Origin: a virus
Taxonomy: Duplodnaviria; Heunggongvirae; Uroviricota; Caudoviricetes
Strand: one strand, 5' to 3'
Length of the DNA: 27,590 nt
Virus record (IMG/VR): IMGVR_UViG_2551306525_000002
Coordinates: 1-27,590 of that record
Position numbers and translations under genes: made by a program. The notes beneath the pieces were generated by a model, which was not told the origin of the DNA, ran no database searches, and saw only the letters and a list, made by a program, of their open reading frames with translations. Position 1 is the first letter of the stretch. The number at the start of each line of letters is the position of its first letter. This document shows positions 1 to 27,490 of the stretch, one piece after another.

Positions 1-1542
1 AGTAAACATGCCATTCGTGATGTGCGTGCACGCCGCCAGGCAAATCTGGAATTTCTTAAATCGTGTGACCTCGAAAACAGGGAAACCGGCGAGCGCATCG
101 ACCTTATCAGTAAGGTGATGGGCAGTATTTCTAATCCTGAAATTCGCCGGATGGAGCTGATGAACACCATCGCCGGTATTGAGCGTTACGCCGCCGCAGA
201 GGGTGATGTGGGGATGTTTATCACTCTGACCGCGCCGTCAAAGTATCACCCGACACGTCAGGTCGGAAAAGGCGAAAGTAAAACCGTTCAGCTAAATCAC
301 GGCTGGAATGATGAGGCATTTAATCCAAAGGATGCGCAGCGTTATCTCTGCCGCATCTGGAGCCTGATGCGCACGGCATTCAAGGATAATGATTTACAGG
401 TCTACGGTTTGCGAGTCGTCGAGCCACACCACGACGGAACGCCGCACTGGCATATGATGCTTTTTTGTCATCCACGCCAGCGTAACCAGATTATCGAAAT
501 CATGCGTCGCTATGCGCTCAAAGAGGATGGTGACGAAAGAGGAGCCGCGCGAAACCGTTTTCAGGCAAAACACCTTAACCGGGGCGGTGCTGCGGGATAT
601 ATCGCGAAATACATCTCAAAAAACATCGATGGCTATGCACTGGATGGTCAGCTCGATAACGATACCGGCAGGCCGCTGAAAGACACTGCCGCGGCTGTTA
701 CCGCATGGGCGTCAACGTGGCGCATTCCGCAATTTAAAACGGTTGGCCTGCCGACAATGGGGGCTTACCGTGAACTACGCAAATTGCCTCGCGGCGTCAG
801 CATTGCTGATGAGTTTGACGAACGCGTCGAGGCTGCACGCGCTGCCGCAGACAGTGGTGATTTTGCGTTGTATATCAGCGCGCAGGGTGGGGCAAATGTT
901 CCGCGCGATTGTCAGACTGTCAGGGTTGCCCGTAGTCCGTCGGATGAAGTTAACGAGTACGAGGAAGAAGTCGAGAGAGTGGTCGGCATTTACGCGCCGC
1001 ATCTCGGCGCGCGTCATATTCATATCACCAGAACGACGGACTGGCGCATTGTTCCGAAAGTGCCGGTCGTTGAGCCTTTGACTTTAAAAAGCGGCATCGC
1101 CGCGCCTCGGAGTCCTGTCAATAACTGTGGGTTACCGGCCAACGGAAGCGACACGGATATGACGCCCACACCGTCTGAGCAAGCCGCAGCGGTGATAAAT
1201 CTCATTGATGCTGGGGTGATCGACTGGAATGACCCGGACGCCGTGAAGGTGCTCAGGGGCGCGCTAAAAGCAGGGGCTAAACCTCAAAACAGGCAACAAA
1301 GAAACCGATCACCGTTGAAGCCGGATGAATTAGCACCTTCAGCGCGACTGACTAAATCGCAGCGTGACCAGATATCACGCATCCGGTTTGACCTAGCACA
1401 ACACGGTATCACGCCGGAGCGGTGGGAACTGGATGTACTGGCGCGGGGCGCAACGGTGACATATGGCGAGAAAAAATTCAGTTATGCGGTCGCTGATGAG
1501 TGGCCGGGATATTCCAATGTTTCAATAATGGAGATTGATTGA
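1..1542 (+). CDS. A: Replication initiation endonuclease gpA (rolling-circle initiator), C-terminal ~507 codons; 5' end is outside the window
   Basis: Reading frame is open from position 1. Contains an HUH-type motif (PHWHMMLF) and the tyrosine-rich motif GYIAKYISKN typical of rolling-circle initiators. Sits immediately before the cargo locus and cos, as gene A does in P2. Confidence 0.85.
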   Translation, partial: SKHAIRDVRARRQANLEFLKSCDLENRETGERIDLISKVMGSISNPEIRRMELMNTIAGIERYAAAEGDVGMFITLTAPSKYHPTRQVGKGESKTVQLNHGWNDEAFNPKDAQRYLCRIWSLMRTAFKDNDLQVYGLRVVEPHHDGTPHWHMMLFCHPRQRNQIIEIMRRYALKEDGDERGAARNRFQAKHLNRGGAAGYIAKYISKNIDGYALDGQLDNDTGRPLKDTAAAVTAWASTWRIPQFKTVGLPTMGAYRELRKLPRGVSIADEFDERVEAARAAADSGDFALYISAQGGANVPRDCQTVRVARSPSDEVNEYEEEVERVVGIYAPHLGARHIHITRTTDWRIVPKVPVVEPLTLKSGIAAPRSPVNNCGLPANGSDTDMTPTPSEQAAAVINLIDAGVIDWNDPDAVKVLRGALKAGAKPQNRQQRNRSPLKPDELAPSARLTKSQRDQISRIRFDLAQHGITPERWELDVLARGATVTYGEKKFSYAVADEWPGYSNVSIMEID

Positions 1543-1848
1543 ATGACCATGTACACCGAAGAAATAAAACAAGTTATTAAAGATAGCGAAGGCATTACCA
1601 CGGCGCGTGACTTGCTATCTGATGTTATGCCGACTGCGGCATCTCGATTTTATCGTCTTTCTACCGCGCTAGAAAAGCTGCGTCAGGAGGTGCGGGAACA
1701 CTTCCCGGAAGCTAAGTATTACACGGTGGGTGGCGATGGCTTCGCGTTGGTTCTGGGGGATACGCATAGCGGAAGAAATTCATCAGCAAATCATGAGTTA
1801 GCGGCGCTCATTTCAGACAAGTTACACGTTGAAGGTGGAGACTGGTAA
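1543..1848 (+). CDS. Hypothetical 101-aa protein, translationally coupled to gene A
   Basis: ATG directly follows the gene A stop (TGAATG at 1540-1545). Backbone-like GC content. Occupies the small-ORF position after A in P2-like phages. No family recognised. Confidence 0.55.
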   Translation: MTMYTEEIKQVIKDSEGITTARDLLSDVMPTAASRFYRLSTALEKLRQEVREHFPEAKYYTVGGDGFALVLGDTHSGRNSSANHELAALISDKLHVEGGDW

Positions 1849-2085
1849 ATGCACAGACTACACCGTGAAATTCCGCAGCATAAGAACAACAGCATAAAAC
1901 TGATGGGTATTGTGCATCGACTGCAACAAATAATGGTCAATGAGAATCTGACACCCGCCGAACTGGTCGGGTGTGCTGAAATCGTCAGGGATAATTACGG
2001 GCGGCTGCATGATATAAGCAATCAGAAAGTTGAGGCCTTCACACCGGCGAGAGGTCCGATAATACTGCCGCCACGTCGACCATAG
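1849..2085 (+). CDS. Hypothetical 78-aa protein
   Basis: ATG at 1849 directly follows the TAA stop of the previous ORF (TAAATG). No family recognised. Confidence 0.45.
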   Translation: MHRLHREIPQHKNNSIKLMGIVHRLQQIMVNENLTPAELVGCAEIVRDNYGRLHDISNQKVEAFTPARGPIILPPRRP

Positions 2086-2238
2086 GAAACGCCGCCGGTG
2101 CTGAAACTTGCTTTCAGTGCTGGCGGGGTTGAACAACTCGCCCAGCGAGGCGTTAGCTATGGTTGAAGTTACGATCCTAATACTTTAAGCCAAGATTTTT
2201 GTAATTACATTAGTATTGGCATTTAGGTATTACATTGT

Positions 2239-3861
2239 CTATTTTCTCCTGAAGTTTAATAGCTTTATTATTAACCAAACCAAAACCATGGATGTGGCAA
2301 AGTAAATTGCATCTTCATAGCTTTTGAGTCCAGATTTCTTAATTAAAAGTGACAGGTTTAGTGTTTCAAATAATGGCTTTACTAAAATTGGGGATAATGA
2401 TGTCGATGCAATTAAACCAAAGGCCATTGTTATCTTCTTATTACTTTTGTCATTTAAGTCGGCATCAATTAATTTTAGCACTTGGATTCTTGACTTTATC
2501 AATTCAATGACGCTTTGACGAGCCCTTTTTATATCGATTGAATTTAATGTATTAAATGTGAAGTCTTGTATCTCTCCATACTTCCTTGAGAAAATCCTAA
2601 GCCACTCTTCAAATAAAAGGATGTCTTCTTGTATTTTGGCAAGGCCAAGATGGCTTTTTTCATTTCCAATTTTTTCTATTGTTGAATCATATGAAAAGGA
2701 AATGAAATCTCTAAGATCACTCTTAACCTGATTGTCCCACATCAGATTTTCTTCTGTATATGTCCCGGTAAAAAATTCTTTTTTAACTTTACATGTAAGT
2801 ATAGTCAGTGCTAAAGACTGTTCAGAAAAAAAATTGAAATCATCAAAGGCACGATGATCAATGATTTTCTTGGTGTGCTTTATGTTTGTTAATAGGTGAT
2901 TTTTGCCCAGCAATGAATAAACTAACGACTTATTACTCTGAAAATTGTCAGTGGCATTGTTTTTTTGATTATCGTGCTCGAAGATATAGACGCTTGGCTT
3001 ACCTTGCCAGAAGTTATAAAACTCAGAAAGATTTCTGCCTAAAAGATAATCTTTAATTGTTCTTTTTTTTGTTTTGTCAAATATTATAGCAATCACATAT
3101 CTGGCGATGTCACTTAAATTATGCTGAATTTGCATTAAATTTGTGTAATCAATATATCTACCTGTAACCTTAAATTCACCAACCTCTAGATCTTCAGAGT
3201 TGTCGTTCAATAGTTTTAAACTCTTTTTAATACTACACTTCGCTATCAGTCTACTAAGTAGTGGCATTCCTGAATAGTCTAGCAGTAACGAACTCTTGGC
3301 GAACTCTATGCTGGTAGTAATCGAACTGTTTAGTTTTAAAGGTAGGTTTAAAATGTTTTTTATGAAATCATTCAAATCAACATTGCGTTCCTCAGTGTCA
3401 ACAAAGGTAACATGTGCTATCCCATTTTTATAGAGACGAATAATTGGATGAATAAAAAATTCCACATCGTTATTTTTTACTAGGATTGGCTTTTGACAAC
3501 ATATTATGTTTTCGTAATAATTATTACCTGATGTGTGAAAAAGCTTTCTTTCAGAGAGTCTAATGTTTATACACTGGGAAAAAGCCGTAGCAGTTAGGGC
3601 GCAAACACCTGACGCATGAATCTTATCACCGCCCTCAACAGTAACAGCATTTTCGTTGTTTTCATATCTCATGCTTATTTTTGTTGAGGATGGTGTGTTT
3701 TTTGATAAATATTTGAATGTGTTGTGTGGCGTTAGTATTGCAAGAAACAACCCTGTATTTATCAAGTCTGAACTAAATTTCTCGGCATCTTGATATTCTG
3801 GCGATTGTGTTGTGTATGTATGCCAAATTACGCCTCTTTGAATTTGCATATCACTACCCAT
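2239..3861 (-). CDS. AT-rich cargo protein of unknown function (540 aa), hydrophobic C-terminus; candidate phage-exclusion/defence gene at the tin/old locus
   Basis: Long uninterrupted ORF in a region visibly much more AT-rich than flanking phage genes. Lies between gene A and cos, where P2 carries tin and old, on the same leftward strand as those genes. No Walker A motif, so not an Old-type ATPase. Two hydrophobic segments near the C-terminus (AFGLIASTSLSPILV, ATSMVLVWLIIKLL). True start may be M1 (3861) or M5 (3849). Confidence 0.75.
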   Translation of the reverse strand: MGSDMQIQRGVIWHTYTTQSPEYQDAEKFSSDLINTGLFLAILTPHNTFKYLSKNTPSSTKISMRYENNENAVTVEGGDKIHASGVCALTATAFSQCINIRLSERKLFHTSGNNYYENIICCQKPILVKNNDVEFFIHPIIRLYKNGIAHVTFVDTEERNVDLNDFIKNILNLPLKLNSSITTSIEFAKSSLLLDYSGMPLLSRLIAKCSIKKSLKLLNDNSEDLEVGEFKVTGRYIDYTNLMQIQHNLSDIARYVIAIIFDKTKKRTIKDYLLGRNLSEFYNFWQGKPSVYIFEHDNQKNNATDNFQSNKSLVYSLLGKNHLLTNIKHTKKIIDHRAFDDFNFFSEQSLALTILTCKVKKEFFTGTYTEENLMWDNQVKSDLRDFISFSYDSTIEKIGNEKSHLGLAKIQEDILLFEEWLRIFSRKYGEIQDFTFNTLNSIDIKRARQSVIELIKSRIQVLKLIDADLNDKSNKKITMAFGLIASTSLSPILVKPLFETLNLSLLIKKSGLKSYEDAIYFATSMVLVWLIIKLLNFRRK

Positions 3862-4234
3862 TGTTATGATTAAGTAATTTTCCTAGTAATGGGCGCGATA
3901 GTAACATTAGATAGAGTGAAAGTGAAAGCCTCCCAAAGTGCCATCAGCCGCCAAACTACAGGCTGTTGATGTGGATATCGTGAGATGTTACATATGACGC
4001 TGACAATCCCTGATTAACACCGAGATTTAGTAACTTGGTCAATGCCATGGTAATGACTTCAAATATCCTGTTGTTAACAGCGCTGATTATTAAGCTGCTA
4101 TCCAGTATTATTGGTGCAATGCGCATCTCTTAACCAAAATAAAACCAACACAAACCAATAATTTGAGTCAGAGTTATCGTTATTTAACCATGAATGCATA
4201 AGGTGCATGGTTTTGCATGAGTCAGCCTTGCACG

Positions 4235-4256
4235 CTCTGGCCGTGAGCGGCCAGAG
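4235..4256. other. GC-rich perfect hairpin (9-bp stem CTCTGGCCG / CGGCCAGAG, 4-nt loop) in the cos-proximal region
   Basis: Perfect inverted repeat read directly from the sequence. No T-run on either side, so not a typical terminator. Possibly part of the terminase recognition region. Confidence 0.4.
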
Positions 4257-4314
4257 CTGGCGCGGATCCAAAATGGTCACGCAACTGCATTAAACCCGAC
4301 CTATAAAGCGGGCA

Positions 4315-4333
4315 GGCGAGGCGGGGAAAGCAC
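4315..4333. other. cos: cos site core: 19-nt sequence GGCGAGGCGGGGAAAGCAC matching the P2 cohesive end
   Basis: Exact 19-mer as I recall the P2 cohesive end, located just downstream of portal gene Q as in P2. Confidence 0.6.
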
Positions 4334-4475
4334 TGCGCGCTGGCGGTGGTGCTGATTTTATTTTTTCAGCGTCTCAGCGCGTCGTGACGGCGTTTGGATT
4401 GTGCGCCGGGGCGTTGGTGTGTCTGCGGGGTGTTTTGTGCGGTGGTGAGCGTGTGAGGGCGTGATGACGGGGTGT

Positions 4476-4497
4476 AAAAAAGCCGCCCGCAGGCGGC
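4476..4497 (-). terminator. Rho-independent terminator for the leftward P-Q operon
   Basis: On the minus strand: GCCGCC-TGCG-GGCGGC hairpin followed immediately by TTTTTT, starting 6 nt after the Q stop codon. Confidence 0.7.
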
Positions 4498-4502
4498 GAT
4501 GT

Positions 4503-5537: not shown

Positions 5538-7309
5538 CAGTAAAACTCCAGAATGGTGGATGTCAGCGGGGTGCTGATACCGGCGGTGAGTGGCTCATTT
5601 AACAGGGCGTGCATGGTCGCCCAGGCGAGGTCGGCGTGGCTGGCTTCCTCGCTGCGGCTGGCCTCATAGGTGGCGCTGCGTCCGCTGCTGGTCATGGTCT
5701 TGCGGATAGCCATAAACGAGCTGGTGATGTCGGTGGCGCTGACGTCATATTCCAGACAGCCACGGCGAATAACGTCTTTTGCCTTGAGCACCATTGCGGT
5801 TTTCATTTCCGGCGTGTAGCGGATATCGCGCGCGGCGGGATAGAACGAGCGCACGAGCTGGAACACGCCGACACCGAGGCCGGTGGCATCAATACCGATG
5901 TATTCGACGTTGTATTTTTCGGTGAGTTTGCGGATGGATTCCGCCTGAGTGGCAAAGTCCATGCCTTTCCACTGGTGACGCTCAAGTATTCTGAATTTGC
6001 CACCGGCCACCACCGGCGGTGCCAGCACCACGCATCCGGCGCTGTCGCCACGGTGTGACGGGTCGTAACCAATCCATACCGGGCGGGAGCCGAACGGATT
6101 GGCGGCAAACGGCGCATAGTCTTCCCATTCTTCCAGCGTGTCGACCATGCAGCGTTGCAGCTCCTCAAACGGGAACACCGACGCCTTGTCGTCAACAAAT
6201 TCACACATGAACAGGTTTTTAAAATCGTCGGCGCTGTTTTCGCGTTTGAGCTGCTCAATGTCGAACAGCGTGCAGCCGCCTTTCAGGGCGTCCTCAATGG
6301 TGACAATCTGCCGCCACTGGCCGTCCGCACAGAGAAGACCTCCGGCAAGGGCGTTATGACTGACGTCGATTTCCACGCGTTCGGCGGCGCTGGCGCGTCC
6401 CCGGTTAAACAGTTCACCCGACCAGAACGGGTAGGCGTCGTGCGCCAGCGTGGACGGGGTGGAGAAATAGGTCGAGCGCAGGTGGCTCTGTGAGGCCATA
6501 CCTGATGCCACCTTACGCAGTACCTGAAAATTCGGGATCCAGAAAATCTCGTCGACGTACAGGTCGCCGTTATGGCTCTGCGCGGTGTTGGAGTTGGTGC
6601 CGAGAAAAATCAGTTTTGCGCCGTTATTGCCCAGGACAATCGGGTCACCGGTCAGGTCAACGTCAACCAGACGGGCAAAGGCGATGATGTATTCGCGGAA
6701 CACATACGCCTGCGTTTTACTGGCCGACAGAAAAATCTGGTTATGGCCGGTTTTCAGGGCGCGCAGCAGCGCCTCGCGGGAAAAATAAAACGTTGCGCCA
6801 ATCTGGCGGGATTTCAGGATATCGCGGATGCGGTGCTCAAGCCCGGCGCGATACCAGTGCAACTGATATTCGAAAGACTGCTCAAAGAAAATCTGCTCCA
6901 GCTTTTCGATGGCCTCGTCACTGAAAAAATTCTTTTTCGGTTTGCGCCGCCCGCCTTTGTTGCGGTTAGCGACGTTCGGATTAAGGTCTGCCTCGTTGCC
7001 GGTCTGGCTGTAGCGGTTTACCCGTGCCAGTCGTTCAATCTGGCGTCCGAGCAGGTCAATTTCCTTGAAGTCACCGCCGGTTTTCTGCGGTTTGATGATG
7101 AGCTGGGTCAGCCGCGCTTCCAGGCTCATTTCGACACGGCTGATGGGGGCAACACTGTCCCAGCCGTCGCGCTGTTTCCAGCTCTGCACCGTCGGGCGTT
7201 TCATCTGCAACATGGCGGCAATCTGCGGCACGGAAAACCCCTGCCAGTACAGCAGCGCCGCCTGACGACGCGGGTCGTGTAAAAGAGTGGTGTCTGTGGT
7301 GATGGTCAT
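5537..7309 (-). CDS. P: Terminase large (ATPase) subunit gpP (590 aa)
   Basis: ORF track gives 600 aa from an upstream start; the ATG at 7309 (MTITTDTTLL...) with a GAGGT Shine-Dalgarno 5 nt upstream gives the P2 length of 590 aa. Divergent from O as in P2. Confidence 0.88.
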   Translation of the reverse strand: MTITTDTTLLHDPRRQAALLYWQGFSVPQIAAMLQMKRPTVQSWKQRDGWDSVAPISRVEMSLEARLTQLIIKPQKTGGDFKEIDLLGRQIERLARVNRYSQTGNEADLNPNVANRNKGGRRKPKKNFFSDEAIEKLEQIFFEQSFEYQLHWYRAGLEHRIRDILKSRQIGATFYFSREALLRALKTGHNQIFLSASKTQAYVFREYIIAFARLVDVDLTGDPIVLGNNGAKLIFLGTNSNTAQSHNGDLYVDEIFWIPNFQVLRKVASGMASQSHLRSTYFSTPSTLAHDAYPFWSGELFNRGRASAAERVEIDVSHNALAGGLLCADGQWRQIVTIEDALKGGCTLFDIEQLKRENSADDFKNLFMCEFVDDKASVFPFEELQRCMVDTLEEWEDYAPFAANPFGSRPVWIGYDPSHRGDSAGCVVLAPPVVAGGKFRILERHQWKGMDFATQAESIRKLTEKYNVEYIGIDATGLGVGVFQLVRSFYPAARDIRYTPEMKTAMVLKAKDVIRRGCLEYDVSATDITSSFMAIRKTMTSSGRSATYEASRSEEASHADLAWATMHALLNEPLTAGISTPLTSTILEFY

Positions 7310-18872: not shown

Positions 18873-19400
18873 ATGCAGCATTTAAAAAATATTACTGCGG
18901 GTAATCCAAAAACTGTTGCTCAATATCAACTGACAAAAAATTTTGATGTTATCTGGTTATGGTCCGAAGACGGAAAAAACTGGTATGAGGAAGTAAGTAA
19001 TTTTCAGGAAGACACGATAAAGATTGTTTACGACGAGAATAATATAATTGTCGGCATCACCAGAGATGCTTCAACGCTTAACCCTGAAGGTTTTAGCGTT
19101 GTCGAGGTTCCTGATATTACCGCCAACCGACGTGCTGATGACTCAGGTAAATGGATGTTTAAGGATGGTGCCGTGATTAAGCGGATTTATACGGCAGACG
19201 AACAGCAACAACAGACAGAATCACAAAAGGCCGCGTTACTTTCCGAAGCGGAAAGCGTTATTCAGCCACTGGAGCGCGCTGTCAGGCTGAACATGGCAAC
19301 AGATGAGGAGCATAGCCGACTGGAAGCATGGGAACGCTACAGTGTTCTGGTCAGCCGTGTGGATCCTGCAAATCCCGAATGGCCGAAAATGCCACAATAA
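18873..19400 (+). CDS. G: Tail fibre assembly chaperone gpG (175 aa)
   Basis: Length identical to P2 gpG; immediately follows H. Confidence 0.87.
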
Positions 19401-19461
19401 GTTGTATGAGCTCTGGTGTGAGCTTACATATCTATGGCACAGAGTAAAGCCTGATCTGACA

Positions 19462-19485
19462 GTCCGCTCTGTGCCAAGAGCGGAC
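19462..19485. repeat. Palindromic boundary motif, copy 1: GTCCGCTC-(8 nt)-GAGCGGAC
   Basis: Perfect 8-bp inverted repeat about 60 bp after the G stop; 20 of 24 positions match the copy at 21608-21631. Confidence 0.6.
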
Positions 19486-19756
19486 CTTAGGCTTCAGTAA
19501 TTTGGTTAGCACAACCCCTTTGATAAACATACAGCTACAGTATTGCTTTTATAAGGAGCGTAGTTTCAATAGGACACCCCAAACGTTAGTCGGGAAAAGC
19601 CGACTGAAAAAAACTTGTGTGGACAAGTAGTGTCCATTTAATGCCATTTTTAGATTAAAATGTGCCATTTTGAGGGTATTCTTAAACGTGCATAACGTTC
19701 TGATTTATCATACACAGAGCCTTATCATTTGAAACCATTCCGATGTACATCAAACA

Positions 19757-21292
19757 ATGATTACAAGAGAAATTATGACACCGCCAACCAAAATTGATAC
19801 ATCAAGTCTACTTACCATATTGGGCGTTATTGCTGCTGTATGGGCCCTTATTACGCCAAACGCTCGACTACGTTTAAGGTTCTGCCTAGCGTGGTGGGAT
19901 TGGGTAATTGTTGGGTTTGCATTCTTACTAAGCAATTATTTGGTGTTTGCACCGGCTTTAAAATCACTAGACTTATATTTTAGCTTTGGCCCCTGGAAAT
20001 GGGGATTAGATAGTTCAAGTGCCGTATACCTGATATCACTCGCAGTTGCTATTTACATTTTATTTCGCTTAAAAAACCCTAAACTCTCAATTGGAAGAAC
20101 AGGGATATTTCTAGAGTTAGTGGAAAATTTGCACCTTACTAAACGATACGACGATCTGGCACAATTGTTGGCACCTCAACTAGAAAAATTAATATCAATA
20201 ATTGATAGACCTGTGAAGAATCGACTTTGTGATAAGATAGCTAACAATCTCCGCATCTCTAATCGCGAGACAGCTGCTGAACATGCACATGAAGCATTGT
20301 TAAATATTGTCTCATCACCTGAACTTACCAATCACTTTGCACTTGCGCACCCATCCCTCTGCCTTGAGTTAATCAAGATCGAGCCAATAGTTCGTTCTGA
20401 CTTTACTTCTAATTTTATCAGTGCATTACTTGGTTCACCTAACAGTCGTCTATATGTTGAGCTTAAAAATAATCTTAACGTTAGTCGAGGACATCGTTTA
20501 TTGATTCCAAAAAACAACCGTATATTACATTTTTTCTTTTCCAATGCTAAGTTTGCAGCTGATTTAGCAATATACCGTGATATCGGTGACTATCTCTACT
20601 GGAGGTTAGATGAAGATGAAAAAATTATTGCTGCACTTAATAAGTCTTTAGGTTCCTATTACGATGCTTCAAAATATAAATGTCCTATTTACTCAGGTGT
20701 CACGCTGTTTGAAATTATGGTTCATGAAGGTATTCACCAGGGTCTTCAGGATCATTTATGGTTGCATTACTATTCATATTTCGCAAGGAAAATTATAAAG
20801 AATATGAATAGGCAATCAGATGAATATAGTGGTGAATGGGAAACACCTTTTCACTTCCTTCTCTGTCATTTATTTAGCGTCGCTACAGATTGGGCAGAAC
20901 AATGCGAATGGATAGATGAAAAGGAGATTCCTCAAGAAAATAAAGAAATAGATAATTTCGATCTTCATTATATTTCAAAAGAGGCTACCAAATTACTTGG
21001 TGCTATGCTGCAGTTGGTTATGCCTAATAAAAAACTCACCTTGAAATCTAGAAAGCATATTCTTGATATAGTTGTATCTTGTTATATTAGGTTGAAAAGG
21101 AATAAAAAATTAAAAGACGTCGCTGACTCATTATTAATTTTCACCACTAGAGGCGAAGGTAATTCAGCACCGCCGCATTATCGTAGAGAACTTCTAGAAA
21201 TATTCAATACCCTTGATGATTATCGATTAAGAACTGATGCCCCGGAATTCCGAGCAGCTATAGAGTCTGCTATTCAAGCAAGGCCGAATTAG
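19757..21292 (+). CDS. AT-rich cargo protein of unknown function (511 aa) with three predicted N-terminal transmembrane helices and a large soluble C-terminal domain; candidate defence/exclusion gene at the Z/fun locus
   Basis: Long ORF in a strongly AT-rich island between G and FI. Hydrophobic segments LLTILGVIAAVWALI, WWDWVIVGFAFLLSNYLVFAP and AVYLISLAVAIYILF. Start may be M7 (19775, purine-rich AAGAGAAA just upstream) rather than 19757. No family recognised. Confidence 0.75.
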   Translation: MITREIMTPPTKIDTSSLLTILGVIAAVWALITPNARLRLRFCLAWWDWVIVGFAFLLSNYLVFAPALKSLDLYFSFGPWKWGLDSSSAVYLISLAVAIYILFRLKNPKLSIGRTGIFLELVENLHLTKRYDDLAQLLAPQLEKLISIIDRPVKNRLCDKIANNLRISNRETAAEHAHEALLNIVSSPELTNHFALAHPSLCLELIKIEPIVRSDFTSNFISALLGSPNSRLYVELKNNLNVSRGHRLLIPKNNRILHFFFSNAKFAADLAIYRDIGDYLYWRLDEDEKIIAALNKSLGSYYDASKYKCPIYSGVTLFEIMVHEGIHQGLQDHLWLHYYSYFARKIIKNMNRQSDEYSGEWETPFHFLLCHLFSVATDWAEQCEWIDEKEIPQENKEIDNFDLHYISKEATKLLGAMLQLVMPNKKLTLKSRKHILDIVVSCYIRLKRNKKLKDVADSLLIFTTRGEGNSAPPHYRRELLEIFNTLDDYRLRTDAPEFRAAIESAIQARPN

Positions 21293-21299
21293 GTAAATC

Positions 21300-21322
21300 A
21301 ACCACCTGCATAGCGGGTGGTT
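21300..21322 (+). terminator. Weak putative terminator hairpin after the 511-aa gene (AACCACC-(9 nt)-GGTGGTT followed by a short T stretch)
   Basis: 7-bp perfect stem starting 8 nt after the stop codon; only 3 T residues follow. Confidence 0.35.
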
Positions 21323-21565
21323 TAGACATAGACCTCTAAGTATGCCTGAAAGCAGAGGTACCTCTAAGTTTCGATGTCTAGGTGTTGATCGGCTGTAATC
21401 TGGTAACCAGGTCAAGCTTAAAATTTTCTCAACATAAACAAGTAGTATTTCAAATATTGAACCATACTGACTCCCCCACTTTTTATAAGATTATGGAAAT
21501 TTTTTGTACCAGTAAGTTCGAAAATTAGTGTTGTTCTCATCAGTCGTTATGAAAAATTTTGAACT

Positions 21566-21587
21566 TCCGCTCCTCGCTCACAGCGGA
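21566..21587. repeat. Palindromic boundary motif, copy 2: TCCGCT-(10 nt)-AGCGGA
   Basis: Inverted repeat related to copies at 19462, 21608 and 22628 (CTCGCTCACAGCGGAC here versus CTCGCTCAAAGCAGAC at 22636). Confidence 0.55.
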
Positions 21588-21607
21588 CCCTCAACTCAGC
21601 CAGCAAT

Positions 21608-21631
21608 GTCCGCTGCTTGCCAGGAGCGGAC
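21608..21631. repeat. Palindromic boundary motif, copy 3: GTCCGCT-(10 nt)-AGCGGAC
   Basis: 20 of 24 positions identical to copy 1; lies between the convergent 511-aa and 250-aa cargo genes. Confidence 0.6.
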
Positions 21632-21667
21632 GTAGTTTAATCTCTACTATGTTAATAAGTAATGATA

Positions 21668-22420
21668 TTAAATAAACTCATCATTAAGAAAGCCTGTTGA
21701 TAAAAAGTTCTGAATGTGAAGATAAAAAGAATAACGTGTATCTTCATTTTTTTTCTTCGATGTGTTGAGTTCCGGCTTGAGATTGTAAATAAGATGAGAC
21801 TCTATAAAGTCAAGTAATTCTATAGCTAATGATGTCGGACTAATCCAATCCAGTGAAATATAGTCTTTTCCATCATAAAACCATGGGGTGGCTCTATATA
21901 TCCTCTTTTTCATATTATTATATTTGGGATCTAGCAACTTTAAGGCAGCCGAGTGACCGCCAATAAACCTTTTGGAGTTAACGGTTTTTCCGACATAAAC
22001 AATGTGTTCATTGGTATCATCCATATCAGAGCATGATATTAAATAGATTGGTAATGAGGGTTTGGGAGGAATGCCGATTTTTTTTTCGATTATCACCCTC
22101 TCCTTTTCATGAATAAAAATGGGAAGCTTTCCATTAAATTCACTCTTCACATTCCCCAAGAATGAATCTGTATTTTTCCTAGCTTCATGCAGTCCGACCC
22201 AGTTAAGACTATTGACCTGATGGAGAGGACAGCATTCCTGTATTGATAACCAAGCCTCCCAATCACTTGATGGATTATCACTACAGTTTTGGCCCGAAAA
22301 TCTGTGTGAAAGGAATTTTCTCCCCTCGAACCAGGCTTGCAACGGAATATATATGTCTGAAGTGTTCTGCTCGACTTCAATTAATGGACTGTTAGTATCC
22401 AAATTTATGCCTCCTTTCAT
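21668..22420 (-). CDS. AT-rich cargo protein (250 aa) with a C-terminal GIY-YIG-like nuclease signature; candidate exclusion/defence nuclease at the Z/fun position
   Basis: Minus-strand ORF just upstream of FI, where P2 carries Z/fun in the same orientation. Residues ~124-213 read PIY-(13 aa)-HIVYVGKTVNSKRFIGGH...AIELLDFIESHLIYN, resembling the GIY / YVGK / R / H / E / N pattern of GIY-YIG nucleases (compare the I-TevI and UvrC N-terminal motifs as I recall them). The N-terminal ~110 aa are unassigned. Confidence 0.7.
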   Translation of the reverse strand: MKGGINLDTNSPLIEVEQNTSDIYIPLQAWFEGRKFLSHRFSGQNCSDNPSSDWEAWLSIQECCPLHQVNSLNWVGLHEARKNTDSFLGNVKSEFNGKLPIFIHEKERVIIEKKIGIPPKPSLPIYLISCSDMDDTNEHIVYVGKTVNSKRFIGGHSAALKLLDPKYNNMKKRIYRATPWFYDGKDYISLDWISPTSLAIELLDFIESHLIYNLKPELNTSKKKNEDTRYSFYLHIQNFLSTGFLNDEFI

Positions 22421-22627
22421 TAAGTATTTGCATAAAAATATCTAAAAATAAGAAATTCTTTAATTAAGATTATAAGTTAAATATAAGTACCAATGAAGCT
22501 TTGAATGATTTCGCATCAATAAATTAATTCTAACACAATACCATATAATAACGAAAAATGTCACTACTTGGTCGTTGAGGATATGACATTGCAATTAAAG
22601 AGAAAACCTTAACACACTATCTATAAC

Positions 22628-22651
22628 GTCCGTTTCTCGCTCAAAGCAGAC
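22628..22651. repeat. Degenerate copy 4 of the boundary motif (GTCCGTTTCTCGCTCAAAGCAGAC); hairpin no longer perfect
   Basis: 19 of 24 positions identical to copy 2 when aligned; located in the upstream region of the 250-aa minus-strand gene. Confidence 0.45.
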
Positions 22652-22719
22652 TGTCAGATTTGATAGCATTTGGGCTATGTAAATTGTCAGGCGGAAAATG
22701 AGTGAGTACAAATCAGGAC

Positions 22720-22750
22720 AGGCGGGCGAATTGTCCGCCTTTTCTTTATC
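22720..22750 (+). terminator. Putative plus-strand intrinsic terminator about 95 bp upstream of FI
   Basis: 8-bp stem (AGGCGGGC / GTCCGCCT, one G-U pair), 5-nt loop, followed by TTTCTTTATC. Confidence 0.4.
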
Positions 22751-22844
22751 TGTTGTTTCATCCCCTGACCAGCCAGGACAAATAGCATCTCATGCCCTGC
22801 ACAACTGAAAATACCACTCACCCATTAACCACGGAGTTAAACGG

Positions 22845-24035
22845 ATGAGTGACTATCATCACGGCGTGCAGGTGCTGGAGATTAACGAGGGCACCCGCGT
22901 CATTTCCACCGTATCCACGGCCATTGTCGGCATGGTCTGCACGGCCAGCGATGCGGATGCGGAAATCTTCCCCCTCAATAAACCGGTGCTGATTACCAAT
23001 GTGCAGAGCGCAATTGCAAAGGCCGGTAAAAAAGGCACGCTGGCGGCATCGTTGCAGGCCATCGCCGACCAGTCAAAACCGGTCACCGTTGTCGTGCGTG
23101 TGGAAGACGGCACCGGCGAAGACGAAGAAACGAAACTCGCGCAGACTGTTTCCAATATCATCGGAACCACCGACGAAAACGGTCAGTACACCGGACTGAA
23201 AGCCCTGCTGGCGGCGGAGTCGGTAACCGGTGTTAAACCGCGTATTCTCGGTGTGCCGGGGCTGGATACCAAAGAGGTGGCTGTTGCACTGGCATCCGTC
23301 TGTCAGAAGCTGCGCGCTTTCGGATATATCAGCGCATGGGGCTGTAAGACCATTTCCGAGGTGAAAGCCTACCGCCAGAATTTCAGCCAGCGTGAGCTGA
23401 TGGTCATCTGGCCGGATTTCCTCGCATGGGATACGGTCACCAGTACCACTGCCACCGCGTATGCCACCGCCCGTGCGCTGGGTCTGCGCGCTAAAATCGA
23501 CCAGGAGCAGGGCTGGCATAAAACGCTGTCCAACGTCGGGGTGAACGGTGTTACCGGCATCAGCGCCTCTGTATTCTGGGATTTGCAGGAGTCCGGCACC
23601 GATGCTGACCTGCTTAACGAGTCAGGCGTCACTACGCTGATTCGCCGCGACGGTTTCCGCTTCTGGGGTAACCGTACCTGCTCTGATGACCCGCTGTTTC
23701 TCTTTGAAAACTACACACGCACCGCGCAGGTGCTGGCCGACACGATGGCTGAGGCGCACATGTGGGCGGTGGACAAGCCCATCACCGCAACGCTGATTCG
23801 CGACATCGTTGACGGCATCAATGCCAAATTCCGTGAGCTGAAAACAAACGGCTATATCGTGGATGGCTCATGCTGGTTCAGCGAAGAATCCAACGATGCG
23901 GAAACCCTCAAGGCCGGAAAACTGTATATCGACTACGACTATACCCCGGTGCCTCCTCTTGAAAACCTGACCCTGCGCCAGCGTATTACCGATAAATACC
24001 TGGCGAATCTGGTCACCTCGGTTAACAGCAATTAA
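22845..24035 (+). CDS. FI: Tail sheath protein gpFI (396 aa)
   Basis: Length identical to P2 gpFI; sequence recognised as a contractile-tail sheath protein. Confidence 0.9.
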   Translation: MSDYHHGVQVLEINEGTRVISTVSTAIVGMVCTASDADAEIFPLNKPVLITNVQSAIAKAGKKGTLAASLQAIADQSKPVTVVVRVEDGTGEDEETKLAQTVSNIIGTTDENGQYTGLKALLAAESVTGVKPRILGVPGLDTKEVAVALASVCQKLRAFGYISAWGCKTISEVKAYRQNFSQRELMVIWPDFLAWDTVTSTTATAYATARALGLRAKIDQEQGWHKTLSNVGVNGVTGISASVFWDLQESGTDADLLNESGVTTLIRRDGFRFWGNRTCSDDPLFLFENYTRTAQVLADTMAEAHMWAVDKPITATLIRDIVDGINAKFRELKTNGYIVDGSCWFSEESNDAETLKAGKLYIDYDYTPVPPLENLTLRQRITDKYLANLVTSVNSN

Positions 24036-25050: not shown

Positions 25051-27490
25051 CAATGTAAAATTACAGGTATTGCTCAGGGCTGTTGACCAGGCATCCCGCC
25101 CGTTTAAATCCATCCGCACAGCGAGTAAGTCGCTGTCGGGGGATATCCGGGAAACACAAAAATCACTGCGCGAGCTGAACGGTCACGCATCCCGTATTGA
25201 GGGATTCCGCAAGACCAGTGCACAGCTCGCCGTGACTGGTCATGCACTTGAAAAGGCACGGCAGGAGGCCGAAGCCCTTGCCACACAGTTTAAAAACACC
25301 GAACGTCCGACCCGTGCTCAGGCGAAAGTCCTGGAATCCGCAAAGCGTGCGGCGGAGGACTTACAGGCGAAATATAACCGCCTGACAGATTCCGTTAAAC
25401 GCCAGCAGCGGGAACTGGCCGCTGTGGGAATTAATACCCGCAATCTTGCACATGATGAGCAGGGACTGAAAAATCGTATCAGTGAAACCACCGCACAGCT
25501 TAACCGACAGCGTGACGCGCTGGCGTGTGTCAGTGCACAACAGGCAAAACTTAACGCAGTAAAACAGCGTTATCAGGCCGGAAAGGAGCTGGCCGGAAAT
25601 ATGGCCTCAGTGGGCGCTGCCGGTGTGGGGATTGCTGCTGCGGGAACGATGGCCGGAGTTAAGCTGCTGATGCCCGGTTATGAGTTTGCGCAGAAAAACT
25701 CAGAATTGCAGGCCGTGCTCGGCGTGGCAAAAGACTCCGCCGAAATGGCCGCACTCCGCAAGCAGGCGCGCCAGCTCGGTGACAATACTGCCGCCTCGGC
25801 GGATGATGCTGCCGGTGCGCAGATTATCATTGCGAAAGCCGGTGGGGATGTTGATGCCATTCAGGCAGCAACGCCGGTCACGCTGAATATGGCACTGGCG
25901 AACCGCCGCACGATGGAAGAAAACGCCGCCCTGCTGATGGGGATGAAATCCGCCTTTCAGCTTTCAAACGATAAGGTCGCTCATATCGGGGATGTTCTCT
26001 CCATGACGATGAACAAAACCGCCGCCGATTTTGACGGCATGAGCGATGCGCTGACCTATGCCGCACCTGTGGCAAAAAATGCCGGTGTCAGCATTGAAGA
26101 AACCGCCGCAATGGTCGGGGCGCTGCATGATGCAAAAATCACAGGCTCAATGGCGGGGACGGGAAGCCGTGCCGTGTTAAGCCGCCTGCAGGCACCGACG
26201 GGAAAAGCATGGGATGCACTCAAAGAGCTTGGAGTGAAAACCTCAGACAGCAAGGGAAACACCCGGCCAATATTTACCATTCTGAAAGAAATGCAGGCCA
26301 GTTTTGAGAAAAACCGGCTCGGTACTGCCCAGCAGGCTGAATACATGAAAACCATTTTCGGGGAGGAGGCCAGCTCATCCGCCGCTGTGCTGATGACTGC
26401 CGCCTCAACCGGAAAGCTGGACAAACTGACCGCTGCGTTTAAAGCCTCAGACGGGAAGACCGCAGAGCTGGTAAATATCATGCAGGACAATCTCGGCGGT
26501 GACTTTAAGGAGTTTCAGTCCGCTTATGAGGCGGTGGGGACTGACCTGTTTGACCAGCAGGAAGGCGCACTGCGTAAGCTCACGCAGACGGCCACAATGT
26601 ATGTGTTAAAACTCGACGGCTGGATCCAGAAAAACAAATCACTGGCGTCAACCATCGGCATTATTGCCGGTGGTGCACTGGCGCTGACTGGCATCATTGG
26701 TGCCATTGGCCTCGTAGCCTGGCCGGTTATCACCGGCATCAATGCTATTATCGCGGCAGCAGGCGCAATGGGGGCAATCTTCACGACGGTTGGCAGTGCT
26801 GTTATGACGGCCATCGGGGCGATTAGCTGGCCGGTTGTGGCCGTGGTGGCCGCCATTGTCGCCGGGGCGTTGCTTATCCGTAAATACTGGGAGCCTGTCA
26901 GCGCATTCTTCGGCGGTGTGGTTGAAGGGCTGAAAGCGGCATTTGCGCCGGTGGGGGAACTGTTCACGCCACTTAAACCGGTGTTTGACTGGCTGGGCGA
27001 AAAGTTACAGGCCGCGTGGCAGTGGTTTAAAAACCTGATTGCCCCGGTTAAAGCCACCCAGGACACCCTGAACCGTTGCCGTGACACGGGCGTCATGTTC
27101 GGGCAGGCACTGGCTGACGTGCTGATGCTGCCGCTTAATGCGTTCAACAAACTGCGCAGTGGTATTGACTGGGTACTGGAAAAACTCGGTGTTATCAACA
27201 AAGAGTCAGACACACTTGACCAGACCGCCGCAAGGACTCATGCCGCCACGTATGGCACCGGTGGTTATATTCCGGCGACCAGCTCTTATGCAGGCTATCA
27301 GGCTTATCAGCCGGTTACGGCACCGGCTGGCCGCTCTTATGTGGACCAGAGTAAAAACGAATATCACATCAGTCTGACGGGCGGTACTGCGCCGGGGACT
27401 CAGCTCGACCGCCAGTTACAGGATGCGCTCGAAAAATACGAGCGGGATAAACGTGCGCGCGCCCGTGCCAGCATGATGCATGACGGTTAA
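25043..27490 (+). CDS. T: Tail tape measure protein gpT (815 aa)
   Basis: Length identical to P2 gpT; coiled-coil-rich N-terminus and glycine/alanine-rich hydrophobic middle region typical of tape measure proteins. Confidence 0.9.
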   Translation: MSNNVKLQVLLRAVDQASRPFKSIRTASKSLSGDIRETQKSLRELNGHASRIEGFRKTSAQLAVTGHALEKARQEAEALATQFKNTERPTRAQAKVLESAKRAAEDLQAKYNRLTDSVKRQQRELAAVGINTRNLAHDEQGLKNRISETTAQLNRQRDALACVSAQQAKLNAVKQRYQAGKELAGNMASVGAAGVGIAAAGTMAGVKLLMPGYEFAQKNSELQAVLGVAKDSAEMAALRKQARQLGDNTAASADDAAGAQIIIAKAGGDVDAIQAATPVTLNMALANRRTMEENAALLMGMKSAFQLSNDKVAHIGDVLSMTMNKTAADFDGMSDALTYAAPVAKNAGVSIEETAAMVGALHDAKITGSMAGTGSRAVLSRLQAPTGKAWDALKELGVKTSDSKGNTRPIFTILKEMQASFEKNRLGTAQQAEYMKTIFGEEASSSAAVLMTAASTGKLDKLTAAFKASDGKTAELVNIMQDNLGGDFKEFQSAYEAVGTDLFDQQEGALRKLTQTATMYVLKLDGWIQKNKSLASTIGIIAGGALALTGIIGAIGLVAWPVITGINAIIAAAGAMGAIFTTVGSAVMTAIGAISWPVVAVVAAIVAGALLIRKYWEPVSAFFGGVVEGLKAAFAPVGELFTPLKPVFDWLGEKLQAAWQWFKNLIAPVKATQDTLNRCRDTGVMFGQALADVLMLPLNAFNKLRSGIDWVLEKLGVINKESDTLDQTAARTHAATYGTGGYIPATSSYAGYQAYQPVTAPAGRSYVDQSKNEYHISLTGGTAPGTQLDRQLQDALEKYERDKRARARASMMHDG

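Follow-up and report, generated by a model that had tools for sequence, protein, structure and literature searches.

Two cargo genes lie between the tail-fibre assembly gene G and the tail sheath gene FI of a P2-like prophage in the 27,590-nucleotide (nt) stretch of viral DNA analysed here (IMG/VR record IMGVR_UViG_2551306525_000002, positions 1 to 27,590; hereafter the window), and they are bracketed by four copies of a 24-nt palindrome, GTCCGCT-N10-AGCGGAC. The motif belongs to a family of hairpin repeats similar to repetitive extragenic palindromes (REPs) and bacterial interspersed mosaic elements (BIMEs) that is multi-copy in other bacteria, and the balance of the evidence tips towards such repeats acting as recombination joints for gene cassettes. 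The motif stands at all cassette boundaries and the breakpoints of homology fall within it. One cassette recurs in different elements and at different array positions, and one precise insertion or deletion is bounded by copies of a single loop type, termed L.

Palindromes at the borders of the G-FI cargo

The four copies lie at 19462-19485 (L1, GTCCGCTCTGTGCCAAGAGCGGAC), 21565-21588 (R1, TTCCGCTCCTCGCTCACAGCGGAC), 21608-21631 (L2, GTCCGCTGCTTGCCAGGAGCGGAC) and 22628-22651 (R2, GTCCGTTTCTCGCTCAAAGCAGAC). L1 and R1 form the left and right joints of cassette 1, L2 is the left joint of cassette 2, and the degenerate R2 is the right joint of the island as a whole; a 19-nt junction spacer (CCTCAACTCAGCCAGCAAT, 21589-21607) runs from R1 to L2. 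The core TCCGCT-N10-AGCGGA matches the window exactly three times, at 19463-19484, 21566-21587 and 21609-21630, all inside 2.2 kb, against approximately 0.002 exact matches expected in 27.6 kb by arithmetic on its 12 fixed bases, while the fourth copy (22629-22650) differs from it at two positions. With up to two mismatches allowed, six matches were obtained in the window versus 1.3 in shuffled sequences, and the remaining two-mismatch matches, at 25391 and 26519, fall within genes and look like chance. A repeat search of the window likewise grouped the four copies, as families of 24-32 nt. The first-pass annotation had placed them at the boundaries between G, a gene of 511 amino acids (aa), a gene of 250 aa and FI, with which the coordinates of genes and open reading frames (ORFs) agree, the second copy being better described as the 24-mer at 21565-21588. 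It overlooked that the loops form two classes, L (..TGTGCCA..; copies 1 and 3) and R (..TCGCTCA..; copies 2 and 4), which follow one another in the order L-cargo-R-spacer-L-cargo-R.

Three of the copies form hairpins, as that annotation had noted. L1 has a perfect 9-bp stem (-24.7 kcal/mol with its flanks, z = -4.3), and the stems of R1 and L2 are 6 and 7 bp long, respectively; R1 and L2 together co-fold into one 67-nt hairpin of -38 kcal/mol on the plus strand and -45 kcal/mol on the minus strand (z of about -6). R2 is a decayed copy that folds no better than shuffled sequence (z = -0.5). The hairpins have a GC content of 64-67% and lie inside cargo of 34-37% GC. L1 and R2 with their flanks are 78% complementary across 36 nt; a reading of the pair as transposon-like inverted repeats, or as the ends of an invertible segment, was considered and dropped, as no cargo was shared in inverted orientation among 49 intervals from related phages and the loop types form an ordered direct series in other taxa.

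These intervals were gathered using the FI protein of the window as the query, which returned 80 IMG/VR loci, to which the reference phages P2, Wphi and 12474II were added. G lies upstream of FI in 59 sequences (55 IMG/VR loci, the three reference phages and the window), and the 49 intervals that are occupied hold 33 distinct cargo sets. An L-type site was present in every occupied interval, 50-62 nt past the G stop codon, and an R-type site in 47 of the 49, approximately 190 nt ahead of FI, where the loop and 3' half of R2 are conserved. Five sites are empty, with an interval of only 128-132 nt that leads from the G stop codon through a terminator (ACAGGCGGGC..GCCCGCCTTTTCTTT) to the region upstream of FI; neither the motif nor the conserved arms that flank the cargo elsewhere were found in these five.

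Alignment of the intervals revealed where the cargo begins and ends. In a comparison with more than 50 other P2-like intervals, the homology to the window breaks off at 19473-19490, within L1 or where it ends, and restarts at 22616-22637, at or in R2, or at 22718 in the empty sites. On the left, a 61-nt arm, the 5' half of L and its loop are constant, and the sequence from the 3' half of L onward varies with the cargo. The right side is the mirror image, with a constant outer half of R, loop and 66-nt arm and a cargo-dependent inner half. The suggestion made from the window alone, that cargo had been inserted or exchanged at the motifs, is thus upheld by breakpoints that coincide with L1 and R2 across P2-like intervals, by the L- and R-type sites flanking the cargo, and by the recurrence of the same junction in multi-cassette intervals. 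Such internal R-spacer-L junctions occur in the window and in loci L008, L017, L054, L059/L064 and L071, with related spacers (consensus approximately CTTyArCTCAGyyAs...) and a distance from R start to L start of 42-43 nt at every internal junction seen. The same cargo was found with G alleles 76% and 96% identical to the G of the window, which shows that crossovers have been frequent within the stretch of some 100 nt that separates the variable part of G from the cargo.

The palindrome in other mobile elements and other bacteria

Of the complete E. coli genomes, 81 contain cassette 1 (19486-21564) at 99% identity. Six of them carry both cassettes as in the window, and the remaining matches stop at window position 21578, 21589 or 21601, in or just beyond R1. 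None of the four cassette-1-only loci that were sampled is a P2 prophage; they are chromosomal islands in which YagK/YfjJ (Gp2-like), GTPase-family and dynamin-family genes are accompanied by insertion sequences (ISs). An L-type site flanks the cassette in these islands, as does an R-type site wherever the right end has stayed intact. The interior of cassette 1 differs between islands and window at 10-14 of 2079 positions; differences in the palindromes are concentrated in their outer halves, with the homology break in the loop or 3' half of R1, which points to crossovers inside the palindromes. The exchange proposed earlier, with recombination between related prophages as an example, thus extends beyond such prophages, as cassette 1 carries the same brackets in non-P2 islands. 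Cassette 2 was present in only six E. coli genomes, always in the arrangement of the window, and was found in no other context among the E. coli genomes searched. The 511-aa gene is widespread in E. coli islands, beside YagK/YfjJ genes.

Cassettes bounded by L and R were also identified in islands of CFT073, an O157:H7 strain and two further strains, with cargo that includes a reverse transcriptase, a TonB-receptor/ABC-transporter operon, dynamin-like proteins and a DHFR-family protein. One cassette, encoding a 366-aa protein and a 200-aa tyrosine recombinase, opens the CFT073 array and takes second place in that of strain AVS0970; what distinguishes these arrays is a precise 4811-nt insertion or deletion with identical L copies at both ends. 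Between yfjJ and yfjP of the E. coli K-12 element CP4-57, where abpAB and rnlAB lie, no clear array could be recognized; one inverted L-like site (GGCCGTTCTGTGCCAAAAGCGGAA) was observed in this element on the minus strand, between yfjW and ypjI (L092:22412-22435). Island arrays also carry ISs at or beside the hairpins, namely an IS30 copy (L087:5927-7085), which occupies the position expected for the R site of cassette 1, and an IS66 copy (L084:248-2842). The hairpins may be preferred targets for IS insertion.

A scan of IMG/VR with the exact L pattern gave at least 117 new loci. Among the matches listed, 35 have L at the P2 position (50-80 nt past G), seven are P2-like with L elsewhere, three have a gene for a small recombinase and no P2 marker, and 72 have no marker of any kind. 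The largest group of the 75 non-P2 loci listed comprises 37 loci of a Rac-like/lambdoid prophage (CI-like repressor, YdaT, DUF977), in which a stop codon is followed by a homologous arm with L and then by variable cargo. One example (IMG/VR contig 648276652_000020; L230:9170-12941) carries a BCCT transporter and a DUF2254 protein between two L copies 3673 nt apart.

An L-type query was matched in 1918 of 5426 complete E. coli genomes (35%), at one to five places each with a median of one, and the R-spacer-L doublet in 869 genomes at one to three places, all sampled matches being intergenic. Each E. coli copy examined in context sits in the variable region of a mobile element, and the motif is low-copy and accessory in this species, not REP-like. 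The one-genome-per-species collection, 596 Gb scanned with the exact 24-nt L pattern, contained at least 120 matching stretches where fewer than one is expected by chance. The matches listed include Serratia, Pantoea, Erwinia, Mixta, Klebsiella, Citrobacter, Enterobacter, many Xanthobacteraceae, other Hyphomicrobiales, Nitrosomonadaceae and Acidobacteriota, among others, and within them the stem sequence is exactly conserved from Enterobacterales to Alphaproteobacteria, Nitrosomonadaceae and Acidobacteriota. On the question of a generic host repeat, which the first-pass annotation had posed, the answer differs by taxon: the motif is not scattered through the genome in E. coli, and it belongs to a REP-like family that is multi-copy and clustered between genes in other bacteria.

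In Erwiniaceae and soil Alphaproteobacteria the same palindrome forms a clustered, multi-copy intergenic repeat. The alphaproteobacterial copies (L100, L145, L152, L155 and others) are arranged in direct clusters with a shared stem, loops in the order GGGTCA, ACCCCC, GTGCCA, and a period of 45-46 nt, reaching 17 copies in 8 kb of a Hyphomicrobiales genome; their spacers hold a conserved TGCAGTGCA, and the clusters create pseudo-ORFs of the form MSALPPKADI...VRFVPKADI. In Erwinia and Enterobacter, R-spacer-L doublets stand between ordinary chromosomal genes (ArsR, AraC plus LysE, phytase-like, LysR, TauE, aldo-keto reductase and MFS transporter genes). One locus of [Erwinia] mediterraneensis (L164:548-5911) has four sites approximately 1.7-1.8 kb apart, three complete R-spacer-L doublets and a lone R-type site, which separate small modules (ArsR/ACT, AraC plus LysE, phytase-like, LysR); the arrangement resembles a cassette array on the chromosome, without phage context.

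Proposed recombination joints and the rival readings

In the reading that we propose, the motifs are copies of a REP/BIME-like repeat whose stem, GTCCGCT/AGCGGAC, is conserved and whose loops fall into the discrete types L and R. Each cargo cassette would be bracketed by L on one side and R on the other, and abutting cassettes would generate the fixed doublet of R, 18 or 19 nt, and L. The same 24-nt sequence, or the 66-nt doublet, would mark the joints of P2-like phages, of the Rac-like prophage hotspot and of CP4-type chromosomal islands, the shared palindromes being the sole homology between otherwise unrelated contexts. A crossover between two joints would exchange a whole cassette for another, or insert or remove one, while G, the terminator and the promoter region of FI stayed intact, since with the same sequence at every joint two of them can recombine without touching the essential late genes on either side. 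Joining was presumably ordinary short-homology recombination or template switching at the palindromes and not the work of a dedicated enzyme, and any effect of the hairpins at the RNA level would be secondary. A role of hairpin extrusion, and the enzyme involved, are likewise points that we infer.

Several considerations weigh against this proposal. Breakpoints meet the end of conserved sequence under any model, and their coincidence with the motifs is by itself no proof that the palindromes promoted recombination. Twenty-four base pairs is at the lower limit for RecA-dependent exchange. The flanks of the Rac-like cargo are L...L and not L...R, such that elements differ in their architecture. 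There is some redundancy among the IMG/VR loci, for which reason distinct cargo sets were counted, and motifs were detected by regular expressions with mismatch limits. Finally, conservation of the stem across phyla without covariation points to a protein that recognises its sequence, and simple homologous recombination requires no such partner.

The lack of covariation is apparent from the stem itself. Each half is conserved, and pair 4-21, the sole pair that varies frequently, occurs as CG 201, TG 40, CA 39 and TA 8 times, as expected of independent change; paired cells made up 86.8% of the P2-locus L set versus 86.8% in shuffled controls, and 77.7% versus 78.6% of the R set. We therefore rejected stem covariation. 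Its absence argues against a role resting on RNA or DNA pairing alone, and the pattern is compatible with sequence-specific recognition or with upkeep through repeated recombination.

Recognition of the hairpins by a sequence-specific protein that excises or inserts cassettes is the likeliest of the alternatives, though we consider it unlikely. The enzyme could be an HUH/Y1 transposase, of the REP-associated tyrosine transposase (RAYT) or IS200/IS605 kind, acting on single-stranded hairpins, or an integron-like tyrosine recombinase, and the intermediate could be a circle with one R-spacer-L doublet. Such a protein would account for exact conservation of the stem across phyla at a frequency far above chance, for halves that are conserved independently and without compensatory changes, for loop types of set order and spacing (R-L at 42 nt in enterics; GGGTCA/ACCCCC/GTGCCA at 45-46 nt in alphaproteobacteria) and for the precision of the L-bounded insertion or deletion. 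Two proteins could be connected with it. The 200-aa tyrosine recombinase, which consists of a catalytic domain only (Pfam Phage_integrase) and is approximately the size of FimB/FimE, recurs in E. coli island arrays and in one P2 G-FI hotspot (L088:4342-4944, in CFT073; L090:8614-9216; L091:3490-4092; L053, approximately 5686-6252; L208, L216, L279 and L304), and YagK/YfjJ proteins with a Rep-like G2P domain lie approximately 270 nt from the first L in some islands. The recombinase, however, sits inside cassettes, with neighbours that differ by array, and is missing from most arrays, including that of the window, whose G-FI interval encodes no recombinase; the protein may be part of the cargo, a local invertase or the enzyme that acts on the joints. 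In the loci fetched, no transposase was found near the copies and no recombinase kept a constant position next to them, and none of the 46 hairpin-flanked ORFs of non-enteric genomes encodes a Y1 transposase or RAYT. The sites have neither the integron core consensus (GTTRRRY) nor the REP-type GTAG, and the nick site of P2 gpA (GCGCCTCGG/AGTCCTGTCAA) has only AGTCC and short words in common with L, a likeness that we rejected as chance. A broader form of the same idea, that the GTCCGCT hairpin is the site of a HUH/RAYT-like or small tyrosine recombinase enzyme moving promoter-bearing cassettes among phages, islands and chromosomes across Proteobacteria, in an integron-like manner with the conserved hairpin replacing attC and P2 Z/fun as one docking site, seems to us slightly more doubtful again.

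The hairpins might also act chiefly on RNA or transcription, as insulators, stabilisers of 3' ends or factor-dependent terminators, and insulate the expression of each cassette in the manner of classical REPs; the coincidence with breakpoints would then be a by-product, no other conserved sequence being present around the variable cargo. L1 does lie 62 nt past G, within the 3' untranslated region that ends the late V-operon, the R1-L2 doublet is placed between the convergent cargo genes, where it folds very stably on either strand, and copies in other genomes are intergenic, with convergent gene pairs somewhat more frequent than divergent ones (18 versus 8); classical REPs, moreover, stabilise upstream mRNA. 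Yet the terminator or insulator role that the first-pass annotation had also entertained is not supported, and we regard a primary function of this type as improbable. A T-run follows none of the four copies, and the terminator scan calls none of them, its only calls being 22720-22740, a conserved backbone terminator that is kept downstream, and a minus-strand terminator-like site at 21316-21302 beside the 3' end of the 511-aa ORF, both outside the copies. In the P2 record, neither L nor R bears an annotation, and the terminator of the V-operon is marked at another place. Stems are not maintained by covariation, R2 and most terminal R copies have a C-A mismatch and fold poorly, and copies also occur in divergent promoter regions, for example at 2229-2291 of L164. 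Rfam gave no match at gathering score in the window and none at E <= 1 in eight repeat-rich loci, and a role in RNA would not need the same sequence across unrelated cassettes. That the copies are functionless relics of one ancestral insertion, palindromic by chance and persisting between exchanged modules, we consider very improbable: the arms and terminal motifs do form a block that is wholly present or wholly absent in P2-like phages, and R2 is decayed, but complete conserved copies occur at internal junctions of unrelated cassettes, in unrelated mobile elements and in other phyla, and the copies are GC-rich islands within AT-rich cargo. Recombination at shared joints is the reading that we favour.

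The locus and its relation to known systems

The window is an instance of the known P2 Z/fun variable locus, in which variable AT-rich cargo lies between G and FI, and its flanks have 93-95% DNA identity to P2, Wphi and others. The layout is G, arm, L, cargo 1, R, 19 nt, L, cargo 2, R, arm, terminator, FI. Gene G (18873-19400, plus strand; Pfam Caudo_TAP, E = 2e-35), the left backbone flank, is 91-97% identical to G of P2, Wphi and others. The left arm (19401-19461) begins directly after the G stop codon, is conserved in approximately 40 distinct P2-like sequences and is missing at empty sites. Cassette 1 (GC 37%) consists of the 511-aa ORF (19757-21292, plus strand) with its own non-coding flanks, and cassette 2 (21632-22627; GC 34%) contains the 250-aa ORF (21668-22420, minus strand). 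The right arm (22652-22717), also conserved and missing in empty-site phages, is followed by the backbone terminator with its T-run and the region upstream of FI (22718-22844), which in empty-site phages abuts the G stop codon; the pF activator site and transcription start are annotated in P2 at the equivalent place. FI (22845-24035, plus strand; Pfam Phage_sheath_1 and related families) is the right backbone flank. Neither cargo protein had a Pfam, PADLOC or NCBIfam match, and given the locus both may be candidate uncharacterised defence genes; the N-terminus of the 511-aa protein is hydrophobic.

Other features of the locus were observed alongside. The left arm holds GGCACAGAG (19436-19444), the reverse complement of CTCTGTGCC in L1 (19467-19475), which resembles a partial inverted L copy; pairing of the two would exclude the L1 hairpin, and the homologous arms of other prophage groups have the same feature. 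Candidate decayed copies in the arms were discarded, that of L in the right arm (22672-22696) because it is not significant, being equalled by 147 of 2000 shuffles, and that of R in the left arm because 6 of 24 matching positions at the expected spacing is, by eye, at chance level. A separate 10-bp hairpin (AACCACCTGCATAGCGGGTGGTT, 21300-21322; -15.6 kcal/mol, z = -4.3) lies 8 nt past the stop codon of the 511-aa ORF and has no plus-strand T-run; this hairpin may serve the cargo gene itself as a signal for its 3' end, distinct from the joints. The other P2 variable locus of the window (1-4500, the old/tin position by the portal gene) has ORFs of 506 aa (22-1542, plus strand) and 540 aa (2239-3861, minus strand) and contains no copy of the hairpin, and the joints are thus specific to the G-FI locus in the window.

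To place the motif among known systems, we compared it with elements that share part of its organization. It works like the REP/BIME recombination hotspots and is laid out like an integron array, and it fails defining features of both. REP, BIME and REPIN elements, which are mobilised by RAYTs in Enterobacteria and Pseudomonas, are likewise extragenic imperfect palindromes of 20-40 nt with discrete subtypes, clusters of set order with fixed linkers and, in some genomes, multiple copies, and REPs are known rearrangement hotspots. The present motif, however, is unrelated in sequence to E. coli REP, its copies starting with (A)GTCCGCT and not with a 5' GT(A/G)G; many chromosome-wide copies occur in other taxa only; its stem is conserved across phyla where REPs are usually species-specific; and it has no RAYT nearby in the loci fetched. 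Like integrons, the arrays are split by an imperfect palindrome, approximately 66 nt in length, whose fold is a single long hairpin interrupted by internal loops, the same cassette is found at varied positions and in varied elements, and precise insertion or deletion leaves one copy of the site. Unlike integrons, they have no adjoining intI or attI and no RYYYAAC/GTTRRRY core at the junctions, they conserve sequence without covariation where attC conserves structure, and their cassettes, which have long non-coding flanks, are found in both orientations and may consist of operons with several genes.

Resemblances to other systems are more limited. The pdif modules of Acinetobacter plasmids, on which XerC/D act, are also discrete modules bounded by short conserved dyad-symmetric sites in many replicons, but no resemblance of the motif to the dif 11-6-11 consensus was noted by eye, and the junctions have two palindromes in place of one shared site. 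Elements of the IS200/IS605 type and their non-autonomous derivatives, palindrome-associated transposable elements (PATEs), have two similar subterminal hairpins and no target duplication, and the fixed end-to-end distance seen here could reflect fixed cleavage offsets, yet the fetched loci yielded no Y1 transposase, the sites show no evident conserved tetranucleotide target and the cargo reaches 5.7 kb. Lambdoid linker sequences are short conserved sequences at module borders that let homologous recombination reshuffle modules; the linker here differs in being one specific palindrome common to unrelated elements and phyla.

As at P2 Z/fun, the cargo between G and FI differs among similar phages. 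The hotspots of P2-like phages, G-FI included, carry anti-phage genes, and the mechanism behind their high rate of gene exchange has been described as open (Rousset et al. 2022, PMC9122126). Palindromes or repeats at hotspot borders are not mentioned in that paper, in the iLund4u preprint (10.1101/2024.10.15.618418) or in Hochhauser 2023. The motif strings and the peptide strings that they encode did not occur in the searchable literature, and no name was found there for the alphaproteobacterial repeat. Going by its title, the work of Nilsson and colleagues from 2004 may already include flanking repeats at this locus, site-specific insertion and a link to island DNA or pathogenic enterobacteria. 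If that work does not describe the family of palindromes, the part it plays in other mobile elements and its spread across phyla, these would be new.

The analysis links mobile-element hotspots of E. coli to a widespread family of hairpin repeats that does not appear in the searchable literature. A scan for L...R pairs could be put to practical use in delimiting cargo cassettes when genomes are mined for defence genes. Taken together, a palindrome common to the P2-like hotspot, other E. coli prophages and chromosomal islands suggests how variable hotspots exchange genes and, as P2-like prophages are a major reservoir of anti-phage defence genes, its presence at cassette edges provides a testable handle on this exchange.

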